DNA of 13,979 bases from a virus (Duplodnaviria > Heunggongvirae > Uroviricota > Caudoviricetes), in IMG/VR virus record IMGVR_UViG_2737471865_000007. One strand, given 5' to 3'. Below the pieces are notes generated by a model that saw only the letters and a list, made by a program, of their open reading frames with translations, was not told the origin of the DNA and searched no databases. The first letter of the stretch is position 1; every line of letters begins with the position of its first letter. The position numbers were made by a program, and so were the translations under genes. This document shows positions 1,448 to 8,074 of this stretch, piece by piece.

Positions 1448-3568
1448 ATGGCAATGAAGGAAGTCGCCAAGCTAACAAACGTTATTTACTGGGACTCTGA
1501 TAAATCCTCCTGGCGAAAAGAAGTTAAACGGCTTGAGGATTATAAAAAATCCTGGAAGAAAGCTACCGACGATATAGCTAAAGCGGATTTTAAATCGAAT
1601 CAGGCTGTGCTCAGAACACAAAGAACACGCGCTAAGGTGGAAGAGCAGATTGCCAGAGCTCAGAGGAAACAACAGGAAGCACAGAAGAAACAACGTGCTC
1701 AGGCTGTCAGCCGTCTGACCGGGGGCAATAATCCGGAGCTCTCCTCTATGCGCAAGTTCTATCAGCAGCAAGCCAGAGAGGCCGCCAGACAACAAAAACT
1801 GTTAGATCGTAGTGTTGGAGATGTTCAGCACAGAAAAGCACGTGTAGGGGCCAACAGTGCACGAATCAGCAGCATGTTTGATGGCTCCCTGGTTGCTCAG
1901 TTCCAAAGCAGAATCCAGAGAGTTAATGCTGATTATGCTAAAGGGGCTATTAACCTGCAGACCTATAATCAGAAAATGGCTCGGCTCAGGGCTGAAATGA
2001 AGATGGCAACAGCTGAAGCCGGAAAATTCCAGAGCAGACTGGACAGAGTGAATGGCAACCTGGGGAAACTGAATTCCACACTAGGCAAGATAGCCATTGG
2101 CCTGACTGCCGCTGGCTGGGGTGTTCAGCGTGCTGTTAGTAGTGCTATGAGTGCTCAATCTGACCATAACTCAGCCTATTATGGTTTGCTTGCTCAGAAC
2201 AAGGATGATAAAGCCAAGACTGACCAGCAGATGGCTTTTATCGAGAACACAGCCAACACCTACGGTATGGATCAGCGTGAGATGGAGGGTGGCTATATGC
2301 GTTTTGCTGCCGCTACTCCCACCATGAAGGAATCTGATAAGCAGGCTCTCTTTGAGGCTATGGCTATTAAAGGCCGCTCAGTGGGTGCTACTGGCGAGCA
2401 ACAGAACAGGGCGCTTGTCGCTATTCAGCAAATGGCTGGAAAAAATCGCGTGATGGCAGAAGAGCTGCGGGGCCAGCTGTCAGAAGCCTTTGCAGGCTCT
2501 CAGCAGGACTTCCAACAGGCCGCTATTGATGCCGGAATCATCAAGAATGCCCAGGAATTCGATAAGGCCATGAAAGATGGCAAAATCACCCTGGACAAGC
2601 TACTTCCTTCTTTGGTGAAAATCTGGGGTGCTGCAAAAGAAACTGACGCTTTTGCGAAATCTATGCAACAGCCGGAAGTGGCATTGCAAAGAATGAGCAA
2701 CCAGTTTTTTAAACTAAAACAATCCTTTATGGGTGTTGTGGATCCTGCGGATGGCGTCATTACCCTGTCAGAATCCCTTATTTATATCTTTGAAGATTTA
2801 TCCTCAATTTTCAGTAGCTCAGGTGAAGATGCCAAATCTCTCGGAGTTATGTTAGGCGAGGCAATGCATGAAATTTATTTTTGGGTTAACTGGGCTTGGT
2901 GGTGGACTAAGAAGATCGCTAAAGGCATTGGTGAGACGTTAGGCTGGACCGCACAGGATGCAGGCGAGAAGATTGGCCAGGTTGTGACCGCCCTGTTAGG
3001 CCTGAAGGTTGCAACAAGCATTGCTGGCATGGTTGGCGGCCTTATTTCCATGCTGTGGAAACTTAAAGCGGCGCTTAGTGCTTTAGTCGGTGTTGGTGAT
3101 ATCAGCACTGGAGGCACAGCAGGTAAAGGCAGACCAGGTAGAGGCGGCTTTATCGGGAAAGCAGGCAGACTTGGAGGAAGATTTGCAGGTCCGGCAGGGA
3201 TTGTTTTGACAGGATTTGACATTGCAAATAGCTTAGATTCCTACTGGCAGAATCCTGATAATCAGCGGCAGGAAGGAGCTAAACATCCTGAATGGTTAAC
3301 CAGTATGGTTAATAGTGCTTCCAGCTTCCTCGGACTTGATTATCGTCTCGATGCAGGACGCTACATTACCAGACCAACACCAACGGGTGGTATTGCTATT
3401 CAGAATGGAGGCTATCAGCCGACTCAAATCAGTGTAGTTCCGCAGGGTGAGATTTCCGGCAAATGGGAGATAACTATTGATGAGGGGGGAATTGCCAGGG
3501 TGATTCAGAAGGAAGTCAGCGATCAGTTGGATTGGAAAGCCACACAGGAATCTAACCAGCTTTTCTAA
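1448..3568 (+). CDS. Phage tail tape-measure-domain protein (706 aa)
   Basis: N-terminal K/R/Q/E-rich coiled-coil region, central segment matching the tape-measure domain signature as I recall it (NRALVAIQQMAGKNRVMAEELRGQLSEAF), C-terminal glycine-rich hydrophobic segments; GAGG 6 nt upstream of ATG. Confidence 0.75.
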   Translation: MAMKEVAKLTNVIYWDSDKSSWRKEVKRLEDYKKSWKKATDDIAKADFKSNQAVLRTQRTRAKVEEQIARAQRKQQEAQKKQRAQAVSRLTGGNNPELSSMRKFYQQQAREAARQQKLLDRSVGDVQHRKARVGANSARISSMFDGSLVAQFQSRIQRVNADYAKGAINLQTYNQKMARLRAEMKMATAEAGKFQSRLDRVNGNLGKLNSTLGKIAIGLTAAGWGVQRAVSSAMSAQSDHNSAYYGLLAQNKDDKAKTDQQMAFIENTANTYGMDQREMEGGYMRFAAATPTMKESDKQALFEAMAIKGRSVGATGEQQNRALVAIQQMAGKNRVMAEELRGQLSEAFAGSQQDFQQAAIDAGIIKNAQEFDKAMKDGKITLDKLLPSLVKIWGAAKETDAFAKSMQQPEVALQRMSNQFFKLKQSFMGVVDPADGVITLSESLIYIFEDLSSIFSSSGEDAKSLGVMLGEAMHEIYFWVNWAWWWTKKIAKGIGETLGWTAQDAGEKIGQVVTALLGLKVATSIAGMVGGLISMLWKLKAALSALVGVGDISTGGTAGKGRPGRGGFIGKAGRLGGRFAGPAGIVLTGFDIANSLDSYWQNPDNQRQEGAKHPEWLTSMVNSASSFLGLDYRLDAGRYITRPTPTGGIAIQNGGYQPTQISVVPQGEISGKWEITIDEGGIARVIQKEVSDQLDWKATQESNQLF

Positions 3569-5834: not shown

Positions 5835-5890
5835 AAAAAAGGGAAGAGGGAAAGACCTATCCCCGATCTCTCACCTCTTCCCTTTGCTTT
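5835..5890 (-). terminator. Intrinsic terminator immediately after the major capsid gene (hairpin could act in both directions)
   Basis: 9-bp stem GGGAAGAGG/CCTCTTCCC (5841-5849 / 5874-5882) with 24-nt loop; on the minus strand it is followed by UUUUUU (plus 5840-5835); on the plus strand by TTTGCTTTT. Confidence 0.6.
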
Positions 5891-6921
5891 TATTTAGCCT
5901 TGGCAGCGGCGGCGGTGTTTTTAACACTCACTTTAACCACAACTTCAGGCATCATGTTCATGAAAGCATAAGAGGATTCAACGAAGATTTCGCGTTTGCC
6001 TCTGGACTCTTCCATATACATGAAAGCTTCACGTGCAGCGCCGTTTGCCAGCTTCAGGTTGCGAGCGCAAGGGCCGAAAAATTGAGTATAAACGCCCACC
6101 ATATCGCCTAACGCATGCGGCTGGAACTGTGGGACTAGATAAGCAGTATTCTCTGGCAGACTATCCATTTGCACCACACGCAGAGCTAAGCCCGGAATGC
6201 GGAAGGTCGGGAAGCCCGGCAGAATATCCTCGGGGAACATCAGACCTTTGTCGGTAATATTCTGATTGCCGAACAACAGCACTTTTCTCAACAGTTCATC
6301 AGTCTGAATTGCAGCAAAGAGTTCAGCACGGCAGAACAGGGTGAAACCACGCAGAGCGCGAACAACACCACGCTGTTTAACCTTGCTCAGTGCAACCAGG
6401 TCCTGCAGCTGTTTAAGGATATCTTTAGCTAAATCCACTTCGGAAGTAGTTTGTTGTGCGCCCAGCAGTTCGCACACATTCAGTTCTTTACCCTTGGTGA
6501 GGATAATTTTGTTCTCAAAGAGAGCAAGCTGGCGTGCTTCTTCGTGGGTCTGGCGTAAGCCTTCGCCCAGTTGAATAACACGACGAGCGGTTACAGACTC
6601 TAAATTCTCTTCGGAATCTTTGCCAGGAACACGAATACCCTGCCAGTCAGAAGGATAAATAGCACTTGATGCGGCAGTGAACGCCATATCACCCGTGCCC
6701 GTTTCACGCTCATCTGCGGTAATGGTCGCCATCTGTTCACCGTAGCGCGGATACTGACCGAAAGCGGTTTGTTTCACCTGGCGAACTTTGTCATATTCAA
6801 ATTTAAAGGTATTGCACAGAGCAGTAGTGTTGAAGATATCCATTGCTGAAATAATCTGGTTATCCAGCGGGATGTCTTTAATCAAGCCACACAGATCGCG
6901 GACTTCGAATTCTTTTTTCAT
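5890..6921 (-). CDS. Major capsid protein, lambda gpE-like family
   Basis: Segment ARRVIQLGEGLRQTHEEARQLALFENKIILTKGKE parallels the lambda E region RRRIIMQNMRDEELAIAQVEEMQAVSAVLKGK; length about 343 aa matches the family; ATG at 6921 preceded by AAGGAGG (complement of 6928-6934) with 6-nt spacer. The track's TTG start at 6927 is less likely. Confidence 0.8.
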   Translation of the reverse strand: MKKEFEVRDLCGLIKDIPLDNQIISAMDIFNTTALCNTFKFEYDKVRQVKQTAFGQYPRYGEQMATITADERETGTGDMAFTAASSAIYPSDWQGIRVPGKDSEENLESVTARRVIQLGEGLRQTHEEARQLALFENKIILTKGKELNVCELLGAQQTTSEVDLAKDILKQLQDLVALSKVKQRGVVRALRGFTLFCRAELFAAIQTDELLRKVLLFGNQNITDKGLMFPEDILPGFPTFRIPGLALRVVQMDSLPENTAYLVPQFQPHALGDMVGVYTQFFGPCARNLKLANGAAREAFMYMEESRGKREIFVESSYAFMNMMPEVVVKVSVKNTAAAAKAK

Positions 6922-6932
6922 CTCCAACCTCC

Positions 6933-7268
6933 TTATTGTGCAATTCGCAAATCGCCATTGCTGGCAGCGATAACAGCGGCTAAGCCTTCTTTATCCACGT
7001 AGGCCGGATTGATGTAGCAACCTTTGTTGGCAACAACGATAAAAGCATCACCAACCTCAGCACGTTCTACAACCAGCAGCGGAGTTTTATCTGTGTGCGT
7101 TGCTTTAACGAAGGTCTCAACCTCGCCAGCCTCAGTCACCACAACAACAGTGCCAGCCGGAATCTCAGCCTTAACTTTGTTTTTAACTTCAACGTCGCGA
7201 ATACTAAATTGCTCATCTGCGGCGTATGAAATGATGTGTCCGCGTGTGCGGATAGTCATATCTCTCAT
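6933..7268 (-). CDS. Head decoration-like small capsid protein (111 aa)
   Basis: About 110-aa ORF immediately upstream of and coupled to the E-like capsid gene, which is the canonical position of a decoration/D-like protein; AGGTGA upstream of the ATG. Assignment is positional and by size, not by strong motif. Confidence 0.55.
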   Translation of the reverse strand: MRDMTIRTRGHIISYAADEQFSIRDVEVKNKVKAEIPAGTVVVVTEAGEVETFVKATHTDKTPLLVVERAEVGDAFIVVANKGCYINPAYVDKEGLAAVIAASNGDLRIAQ

Positions 7269-7749
7269 TTGATCACCTGCGATTTAAATTAACTCCCCTC
7301 AAAGGGCTCAGGTATAACCTCTCAAACCACGACAGGCTCGGGCCGAAAAGTTATGCCGGAAATCTAAAGGGGGATTGATATAAGGAGAGGGAGATAGCCC
7401 CGCACCGTCCAAGCGGGGGCTATTCCACATGGGGAAACCGACAACAGTCGGATGATAGTTCACAGTATGGTTACGGTTACTAGAGAGCACTATCACGAAA
7501 GGCACTCCCCCGAATCAGTTCAGGCTGCGGTCACATCAGCGGGGAAATACCTTTCGGGATAGCTACCCACACAGAAAACCCGCAAAAGAAAACTGTGTGG
7601 ATAACTAGCCCTGTAGGGAGAATAAGGAGAATTAATCGACCACTCAACGATGATCAGGGTAGTGTTATTTATAAGGCGGCACCGCTACCTGGTCGCCTTT
7701 ACTTTGGAGGAAAATACGGCAAATCACCTTCGCTAAATGATTCACGGTA

Positions 7750-7786
7750 TACTGTATATTGTATCAGTATTCTCTCAAATTGTCAA
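7750..7786 (-). promoter_or_regulatory. Near-consensus sigma70 promoter (leftward) overlapped by a LexA/SOS box
   Basis: Minus strand TTGACA (complement of 7781-7786), 17-nt spacer, TACAAT (complement of 7758-7763). Plus-strand 20-mer TACTGTATATTGTATCAGTA (7750-7769) fits the LexA consensus TACTGTATATATATACAGTA at the conserved CTG-N10-CAG and flanks. Confidence 0.55.
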
Positions 7787-8074
7787 CCCCTTTATTATAT
7801 AAATTCTAATAATTAGCGTAGTAACGGTATTTTCAGACTGCTATCAATCCCATCAATACGTCATCTCATCGCATCTATCATAACTTTTTCATTCGTGATA
7901 GATATCTTTTGATCAATATCAATGTTTTCCGGGGACTTGCCCGGCTATAGTTCGAATCCAGGAAGGGGAGCATTGATAGAGACACCCAAAGGGGTGACTG
8001 AAAGTCACCTGGCATAGCCAGTGAAAGCACCCCAACCGAACAAACAAATCAACTTCTCGCAAAAGGTGATAGTT

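Follow-up and report, generated by a model that had tools for sequence, protein, structure and literature searches.

A putatively LexA-controlled promoter and a conserved, structured leader ahead of the capsid genes of a plasmid-borne element from Escherichia coli

Operon I of the Staphylococcus aureus pathogenicity islands (SaPIs), which serves packaging and capsid remodelling, is described as LexA-repressed in the account given by PMC3152322, which cites Ubeda et al. (2007) for it. As portrayed in that account, the promoter of a satellite's morphogenesis operon bears an operator for the LexA protein of the host, which ties the operon to the SOS response. This arrangement resembles the one that we analyze here: the promoter and leader of the capsid operon in the 13,979-nt IMG/VR record IMGVR_UViG_2737471865_000007 (this whole stretch is called the window below), which corresponds to a plasmid-like element of E. 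coli. Because of the SaPI precedent, the principle of LexA-controlled satellite morphogenesis is already known; direct LexA control of a structural operon, which a first-pass annotation of the window had called uncommon, is indeed unusual but not without parallel. The two systems nevertheless differ in many respects. SaPIs reside in Gram-positive hosts, use another LexA motif, are integrated into the chromosome and depend on temperate helpers; their operon I encodes remodelling proteins and TerS but no capsid protein of its own, shares no sequence homology with the window, and has no long structured leader described for it. The window element, in contrast, carries an SOS box of the Gram-negative type that is polymorphic among its relatives, and possesses a plasmid replicon and capsid and tail genes of its own. 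We propose, with slightly more confidence than doubt, that its head genes form an SOS-gated operon of a plasmid-borne satellite in which a cis-acting leader RNA provides a second, post-initiation gate.

Capsid-forming phage-inducible chromosomal islands (PICIs), the phage-inducible chromosomal island-like element (PLE) of phage ICP1 and the phage-inducible chromosomal minimalist island (PICMI; PMC10803314) offer a further comparison, since they too are small helper-dependent elements with some virion genes of their own; PLE and PICMI are satellites of virulent phages, and the structural genes of the window element relate it to a virulent phage group. It differs from all of them in being a plasmid replicon without an integrase, in that its helper dependence is predicted, and in its set of virion genes, which comprises homologues of capsid, tube-initiator, tape-measure and tail-completion proteins. 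Scans against Pfam and PHROGs detected no integrase, portal, protease, head-tail connector or TerS domain in the element, and no open reading frame (ORF) of the window resembles a terminase or portal gene or has the length to be one. The traits by which capsid-forming PICIs are recognized (an integrase, integration, and a portal, protease, connectors and TerS of their own) are missing from it.

The succession of a strong, constitutive-type promoter, an untranslated leader and head genes resembles the PR'-6S RNA-tR' segment of phage lambda and its Q protein; a terminator in the leader is canonical in the diverged relative L002 (capsid 82% identical), and the hairpins of L009 (capsid 30% identical) are terminator-like. 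The window element differs from the lambda module in having no Q gene among the 19 ORFs scanned against Pfam and PHROGs, no Q-binding element and no demonstrated promoter-proximal pause; moreover, its leader is two to three times longer, contains a conserved multi-helix domain and a hairpin without a U-run, and the element is not lambdoid. Since neither a Q-like gene nor its binding element is present, we do not claim membership in the lambda class. The put RNAs of phage HK022, like other cis-acting RNAs of processive antitermination, are stem-loops that act on their own transcript and are placed a short way behind a promoter, ahead of terminators; the likeness to the window leader is one of layout, with the function predicted here and the domain of the window being larger. 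With structured cis-regulatory leaders in general, the window leader has in common that it is non-coding, folds in a strand-specific manner, shows compensatory changes and is under purifying selection, all of this at a shallow phylogenetic depth. The first-pass annotation had placed the locus in a lambdoid-phage context, which did not hold: the element is a complete plasmid-like one of about 13.3-14 kb with an iteron/Rep-like replicon, it lacks terminase and portal, and its structural proteins are nearest to those of the Vequintavirinae. As the element is not lambdoid, a comparison with SOS sensing by repressor autocleavage is inapplicable.

To describe the control region, we use the following positions; allele counts refer to a sample of 26 control-region loci with 19 distinct sequences (alleles).

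7792-7820: A/T-rich tract upstream of the -35 element
7791-7786, minus strand: -35 element TTGACA, seen by direct reading and by consensus scan, the same in all 19 alleles including L002
7763-7758, minus strand: -10 element TACAAT (TATAAT in most relatives), extended by a TG at 7766-7765 to TG-n-TACAAT
7750-7769: SOS box TACTGTATATTGTATCAGTA, a 20-nt A/T-rich palindrome with a CTG-N10-CAG core that spans the -10 element and the predicted start
About 7750-7753, minus strand: transcription start predicted from the promoter position
7278-7273, minus strand: Shine-Dalgarno sequence AGGUGA, followed by the AUG (7268-7266) of the first gene
6933-7268, minus strand: gene for a 111-aa protein
5890-6927, minus strand: gene for the major capsid protein (345 aa)

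The leftward near-consensus promoter that had been read from the minus strand is confirmed. It occupies 7791-7758, combines a 17-nt spacer with 11 of 12 consensus matches and the extended -10 TG, and ties for the top promoter-like site in a sigma-70 consensus scan of all 13,979 bases; -35 element, spacer length and -10 element are retained in all 19 distinct sequences. The same type of scan found no other good promoter for the capsid genes within 7269-7750. As to the genes that it precedes, said earlier to encode decoration and capsid proteins, the 345-aa product is a major capsid protein (PHROG 29, E = 3e-21). The label "decoration" for the 111-aa protein is based on position only; BLASTP found no similarity between it and the decoration protein of rV5.

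For the SOS box, a crude CTGT-N9-CAG pattern alone, with four matches in the window versus 1.35 expected, is not significant. We rely on a symmetrised LexA weight matrix built from 31 E. coli sites, an approximate tool under which, apart from one outlier at 6.9, the leave-one-out scores of these sites lie between 12.9 and 26.1 bits. By this approximate matrix, TACTGTATATTGTATCAGTA of the window reaches 14.7 bits, inside the range of known operators, and TACTGATATAATATACAGTA, the commonest allele among the box-bearing relatives, reaches 19.3 bits. The expectation per shuffled window is 0.087 for sites scoring 14.7 bits or more and 0.005 for those scoring 19.3 bits or more; when the local A/T-rich 200 nt (7700-7900) are shuffled, 14.7 bits or more is attained in 0.2% of the trials (P = 0.002). 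Like canonical SOS boxes, it has the CTG-N10-CAG core, its left half is TACTGTATAT, and TCAG closes its right half; it differs from them in residing on a mobile element, in being polymorphic among alleles and in being predicted. Compared with the uvrA operator TACTGTATATTCATTCAGGT, a canonical E. coli SOS box, 15 of 20 positions match, and both boxes overlap a promoter. The matrix statistics, together with a placement that coincides exactly with -10 and +1 of the strongest promoter, make it likely that the window allele carries a real LexA operator, to which binding is predicted; the earlier designation of 7750-7769 as an SOS box covering -10 and start is upheld to this extent.

The box is not a constant of the family. 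It is intact in 10 of the 19 alleles (16 of the 26 loci), destroyed by a one-base deletion that turns CAG into CAT in eight others (nine loci), missing in L002, and absent from the equivalent promoter of L009. Together with the score of 14.7 bits for the window copy and with the finding that the promoter-proximal 75 nt vary as much as synonymous sites, these losses speak for a different explanation, namely that the palindrome TACTG...CAGTA arose around an A/T-rich -10 element and is incidental or vestigial, that LexA does not control the operon, and that regulation lies wholly in the leader or with an element-encoded repressor such as the divergent 86-aa helix-turn-helix (HTH) protein. We hold this to be somewhat unlikely, because such a box is rarely met by chance in the local sequence or, at 19.3 bits, in a whole window (the probabilities given above), because it sits exactly over -10 and +1, and because the window has four sites of at least 14.7 bits against the 0.087 expected, one of them with a core that is kept in ten relatives.

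The three further LexA-like boxes of the window are found at 10115-10134 (16.1 bits), 10549-10568 (17.0 bits) and 3286-3305 (15.7 bits). In the first, CTG-N10-CAG is kept in 10 of 10 full-length relatives, with substitutions confined to flanks or spacer; the second lies among the iterons, where other alleles carry different CTGT-N8-ACAG boxes; the third is allele-specific and lies inside the tape-measure gene.

Predicted LexA control is an allele-specific layer, and the promoter with its long leader is, by comparison of the available sequences, the family trait. Eight alleles possess a perfect TTGACA-17-TGATATAAT promoter without a LexA box; something other than LexA, acting downstream of initiation, would therefore have to restrain capsid expression in them. 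L009, too, combines a TTGACA-17-TAATAT promoter with an ORF-free leader of about 640 nt before homologous genes. This family-wide conservation of promoter and leader suggests that the principal control is exerted after initiation.

The leader itself extends untranslated over about 483 nt from the predicted transcription start to the ATG at 7268. That 7740-7269 lacks a credible coding frame, as noted in the first pass, is borne out. ORFs of 21-73 aa do occur on both strands in 7269-7800 (26-73 aa for those in 7269-7750), and one could imagine that the region encodes one or more small proteins; yet these ORFs match no Pfam or PHROG family, each of them is broken by indels of 1, 2, 4, 5 or 10 nt among the relatives, substitutions follow no codon periodicity, and the alleles share no ORF in the stretch that is conserved best. 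Given the absent family matches and the frameshifting indels, we dropped the protein-coding reading, which is exceedingly improbable.

Conservation was assessed as nucleotide diversity (pi) across 17 E. coli-type sequences. At third codon positions of the two downstream genes, pi is 0.118 and 0.145, and at second positions 0.022. Variability on the level of synonymous sites (0.09-0.16) is seen in the spacer of the promoter, in the LexA box and in the 5' hairpin; the distal leader takes a middle position (0.02-0.10), and between them lies a core in which pi drops to 0.000-0.021. In an alignment of ten complete elements, 7501-7700 displays the lowest diversity of the entire 14 kb (0.004-0.011). 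The comparative alignment that had been suggested as a check thus singled out the core at 7516-7716 as the most conserved DNA of the element. Judged by these values, the leader is under strong purifying selection and, for this reason, is probably regulatory; the earlier surmise that this long, structured, non-coding RNA may itself regulate is supported to that degree.

The leader contains the following features.

7714-7752, minus strand: 5'-terminal stem-loop with a variable 5' arm (four alleles) and a constant 3' arm UGAUUUGCCGUAU
About 7516-7716, minus strand: ultra-conserved non-coding core (columns 75-275 after the -35 element)
7673-7699, minus strand: hairpin A, AAGGCGACC-AGGUAGC-GGUGCCGCCUU, followed by the invariant single strand AUAAAUAACACU
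7556-7611, minus strand: hairpin B, GGGCUAGUUAUCCACACAG / CUGUGUGGGUAGCUAUCCC, with the conserved loop UUUUGCGGRUUU
7497-7555, minus strand: helix C domain, in which GAAAGGUAUU pairs with AGUGCCUUUC and encloses a variable insert
7438-7451, minus strand: hairpin D, CCGAC-UGUU-GUCGG
7389-7426, minus strand: GC-rich terminator-type hairpin, followed by a C/U-rich tract at about 7353-7396

Both hairpins that had been named in the first pass are present: the one given there as 7398-7421 is found at 7397-7422 (AGCCCCGC/GCGGGGGCT) within the terminator-type hairpin, and the other at 7561-7608 (CCACACAG/CTGTGTGG) is our hairpin B. Folding is predicted to favor the transcribed strand at all levels tested. 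The full window leader folds with -170.8 kcal/mol in the sense orientation (z = -4.06 versus dinucleotide shuffles) and with -142.3 kcal/mol in the antisense orientation (z = -1.38); the respective z scores are -3.53 and -1.03 for the leader core, -6.9 and -4.9 for the leader of L002, and -8.8 and -6.4 for that of L009. The 5' hairpin lies within 1-4 nt of the predicted start and has a folding energy of -9 to -12 kcal/mol in five of the six E. coli-type alleles tested, the sixth (L011) having a weaker one (-6.7 kcal/mol, z -1.1).

Substitutions in L002 tend to respect these helices. The hairpin A block CCAGGTAGCGGTG...ATAAATAACACT is retained there, and its altered stem bases still pair; hairpin B differs in stem sequence but keeps pairing and loop; and helix C, when E. 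coli type and L002 are compared, is 100% paired with two double-sided changes and one repaired mismatch, its G.U pairs corresponding to A.C on the opposite strand. In hairpin D, a compensatory change from G-C to A-U is seen in 8 of the 19 alleles. Over five local helices, nine pairs are changed on both sides, compared with 1.1 +/- 0.7 in shuffled controls (none of 500 reaches nine) and 1-4 in slid controls. Taken together, the covariation lends moderate support to a leader RNA, about two lineages deep. A covariance model of helices B and C matches the window and L002 (77 bits), L002 being one of the four model sequences, so that this match arises by construction. The covariance search against Rfam that had been put forward earlier returned no known RNA family: nothing relevant was found in the whole window with Rfam 15, including the C4/CI immunity RNAs, ROOL, GOLLD and known leaders, and laxer filters over 7200-8300 gave a best E of 4.2 for the mgtC leader (15 bits versus a gathering score of 48). 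The leaders of the window (UUUGCGGGUUUUCUGUG) and L009 (UUUGCUGGUUUUCUGUG) match over 17 nt (E = 0.004); the two sites lie in different structural contexts, and we treat the match as unproven.

Conservation as extreme as that of the core, beyond what pairing alone would need, also brings to mind a role as DNA: a packaging site (pac or cos) for a helper terminase, a site for partition or replication, or a protein-binding site. There are 18 copies of the heptamer CCACACA versus 1.3 expected, including one in each arm of hairpin B, and with a perfect DnaA box TTATCCACA (7597-7605, minus strand) they would fit such a site; furthermore, the element has no recognisable terminase and needs a packaging signal somewhere. 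Against this stand the much better folding of the transcribed strand, the reliance of the helices on G.U pairs, and the fact that L002 alters the stems of hairpin B and helix C yet keeps them paired. In addition, the iteron origin lies elsewhere (10528-10714), and the best match of the leader to an rV5-like genome scores 25.7 bits versus 26.9 +/- 1.8 for shuffled sequences. We regard a function of the core as DNA as improbable. The leader as a mimic of helper DNA was likewise discarded, since its best match in phage naam is no better than shuffles. The 18 CCACACA sites include 7567-7573, 7594-7600, 8126-8132, 8183-8189 and 10869-10981, and none of 200 shuffles reaches this number; the heptamer forms part of the iteron end TTTCCCACA.

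Downstream of the core, the counterpart in L002 to which the 7389-7426 hairpin aligns is a canonical intrinsic terminator with a 15-bp stem followed by a T-run (L002:1402-1436), and the leader of L009 contains two terminator-like hairpins. The strong promoter, the conservation and structure of the 5' domain, and the L002 terminator at the corresponding position would suit yet another interpretation, in which the main product is a stand-alone non-coding RNA of about 330-360 nt that ends at this hairpin, comparable to the 6S RNA made from the lambda PR' promoter or to a trans-acting RNA aimed at helper or host, with the capsid genes expressed only by occasional read-through. We give this little credence: the window hairpin is not followed by a U-run, no complementarity to the rV5-like genome tested and no Rfam match were found, and read-through would be required, as no other good promoter for the capsid genes exists in 7269-7750. 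Long-range masking of the ribosome-binding site is a possibility raised by the folding predictions. We set aside a Rho-utilisation site in the C/U-rich tract, which would be weak with a maximal C/G ratio of about 1.9, as well as a lambda/P2 cos resemblance, a boxA-like UGCUCUCUAGUAA and a sigma-dependent pause element, which were seen by eye only and are not conserved in L002.

In the mechanism with a LexA gate and a leader gate that we favor, a near-consensus sigma-70 promoter would fire leftward from about 7751. A LexA dimer at 7750-7769 would block the -10 element and the start site in the window allele and keep the operon silent, until RecA-mediated LexA cleavage, elicited by DNA damage or possibly by phage infection, releases it. 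The transcript would start with the 5' stem-loop and continue through the 483-nt leader, whose first 200 nt or so would form the conserved multi-helix RNA domain and whose distal part would carry the terminator-type hairpin and the C/U-rich tract just before the ribosome-binding site. Acting in cis through attenuation or antitermination, possibly along with control of translation or mRNA stability, the leader would constitute the second gate and delay capsid synthesis pending a further signal that would probably come from the helper phage; a protein of the helper or of the element, or else the RNA itself, could open this gate. LexA would be the optional first gate. Of all this, the analysis shows the motifs, the missing coding capacity, the strand-specific structure, the purifying selection and the conservation of the architecture; LexA binding, the start site, termination and any input from a helper are inferred.

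Several observations weigh against this proposal. With respect to the first gate, the losses of the SOS box in 8 of 19 alleles and its absence from L002 and L009 make it dispensable, the window box lies near the weak end of real sites on an approximate matrix, and the virulent phage relatives of the structural genes make an SOS trigger not obviously the right signal. With respect to the second, the covariation depends largely on the single diverged sequence L002, and no copy turns up in L009, L008 or phage naam when they are searched with the covariance model of helices B and C. A window scan calls no terminator in the leader, the hairpin at 7389-7426 being devoid of a clean U-run, and the C/G ratio in 7353-7396 is moderate and weak for a Rho site. 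The ribosome-binding site is predicted to be masked in the window and in L001, unmasked in L005, and paired with other partners in L002 and L007, and none of the 19 ORFs scanned against Pfam and PHROGs matches an antiterminator family.

A more far-reaching idea, which we advance as speculation and think unlikely, is that the leader core at 7516-7716, with helices B and C down to 7497, represents a new class of cis-acting RNA switch, working by put-like antitermination or by sensing the helper, that times capsid production in undescribed plasmid-borne satellites of rV5-like phages, LexA having been recruited in some alleles as an extra sensor of infection or damage. Should the two-gate proposal prove true, a helper-dependent element would time its own capsid genes by two stacked controls, one a host SOS operator that is gained and lost among alleles and the other a leader RNA that is the most constrained sequence in the element. 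LexA-gated satellite morphogenesis as known from the SaPIs would then extend to Gram-negative bacteria and to a plasmid replicon, and a compact test system of about 550 bp would be at hand for RNA-based control of late genes. Of the leads that our analysis gives, we find the leader core and the element family most interesting. The family is apparently undescribed, and its structural genes point to rV5-like phages, which are used in therapy and biocontrol, as possible helpers.

With regard to the identity of the element, megablast matched the window over nearly its full length and with 90-95% identity to circular E. coli plasmids of 13.2-13.7 kb, and gave zero matches among 50,697 phage records. 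All close relatives are circular plasmids of 13-14 kb, plus one 39.6-kb multimer. The window appears to be one complete circular plasmid-like element from a rare family, found in E. coli only and about 13.2-14.3 kb in size. Its capsid family is small, with 18 clusters at 90% identity that are all from E. coli except one at 82%; an exhaustive capsid search yielded 29 representatives in 1.84 billion proteins, with the nearest sequences at 42% and 30% identity. Searches of IMG/VR with capsid peptides and two DNA patterns, and of the GTDB species representatives with a DNA pattern and a capsid alignment, revealed no further relatives, and JGI metagenomes contributed four additional copies, all of the E. 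coli type. We found no paper on this plasmid family or on satellites of rV5. The multimer, NZ_CP043822.1 (39,610 bp), comprises three copies of the element (3 x ~13.2 kb); if genuine, it would bear on headful packaging in a larger capsid, but it could also be an artefact of the assembly.

Besides the control region, the element contains the following genes.

Major capsid protein (PHROG 29), with the 111-aa protein gene ahead of it
Dit-like tube-initiator protein and tail-completion-like protein
Tape-measure protein, with two small ORFs upstream
86-aa HTH protein, divergent from the capsid operon
Rep/O-like protein, with five iterons of about 21 nt at 10528-10714

Within the phage collection, the best match of the Dit-like protein is to rV5-like tube initiators (45% identity) and that of the tape measure to its Vequintavirinae counterpart (about 25%); the major capsid protein is 24-25% identical to rV5-like major head proteins across 97% of its length, and the gene order parallels that of rV5. 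These protein matches, the gene order and a shared 52-nt element lend indirect support to the view that the window most likely represents a plasmid-borne, helper-dependent satellite, of a family proposed here, for which rV5-like virulent phages are the likely helpers.

The 52-nt DNA element at 7976-8027 has three short hairpins and is 88-90% identical to a spot in about 63 rV5-like genomes, where it is intergenic, unannotated and located in the divergent early-control region (L028:2501-2552). In the window, it lies about 190 nt upstream of the capsid promoter, in an insertion exclusive to the window, L001 and L003. A second copy at 1257-1307 is 82% identical, exhibits a compensatory G-C/C-G swap, and forms an in-frame 51-nt insertion in the 78-aa ORF ahead of the tape-measure gene, an ORF that measures either 61 or 78 aa among the relatives. 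A tRNA reading of a TTCGAATCC-like motif near 7955 was dropped, as ARAGORN found no tRNA or tmRNA gene in the window.

Between elements that are otherwise 90-95% identical, two regions stand out with a pi of 0.3-0.45, the 195-aa gene at 8594-9181 and the Rep-like module at 11700-13600; the neighbouring gene has versions of 173, 195, 236 and 239 aa. This diversity suggests allelic replacement, perhaps by way of incompatibility or immunity. The 2.5 kb at 9181-11754 have no annotated gene in any relative and include several near-consensus promoters; within them, 9401-10300 is highly conserved (pi 0.01-0.08) and the iteron/repeat part at 10500-11300 hypervariable (pi 0.2-0.35). The region may hold non-coding RNAs or a packaging site.

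At 11599-11754, a second near-consensus promoter (plus strand, TTGACA-17-TAAAAT with TG) is followed by a terminator-like hairpin (11678-11702) and the first gene of the replication/tail operon (11754), which is the same order of promoter, terminator and genes as in the capsid operon. The hairpin could alternatively terminate an upstream ORF at 11472-11621; this ORF encodes a hydrophobic product of 49 aa that matches no family and that relatives list as hypothetical, and the corresponding divergent region of L009 contains several very small ORFs, likewise hydrophobic.

It seems that a small repeat module moves about in the element, since an insertion of about 70 nt in the distal leader of L007 (L007:5768-6336), also present in L012, resembles the CTGTGTGTGGGG-containing repeat units at 10860-11000. 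Finally, a highly conserved block at 8031-8133 lies between the HTH gene and the capsid promoter; its minus-strand 30-mer ACTATCACCTTTTGCGAGAAGTTGATTTGT is identical in the diverged L002 and is better kept than coding sequence.

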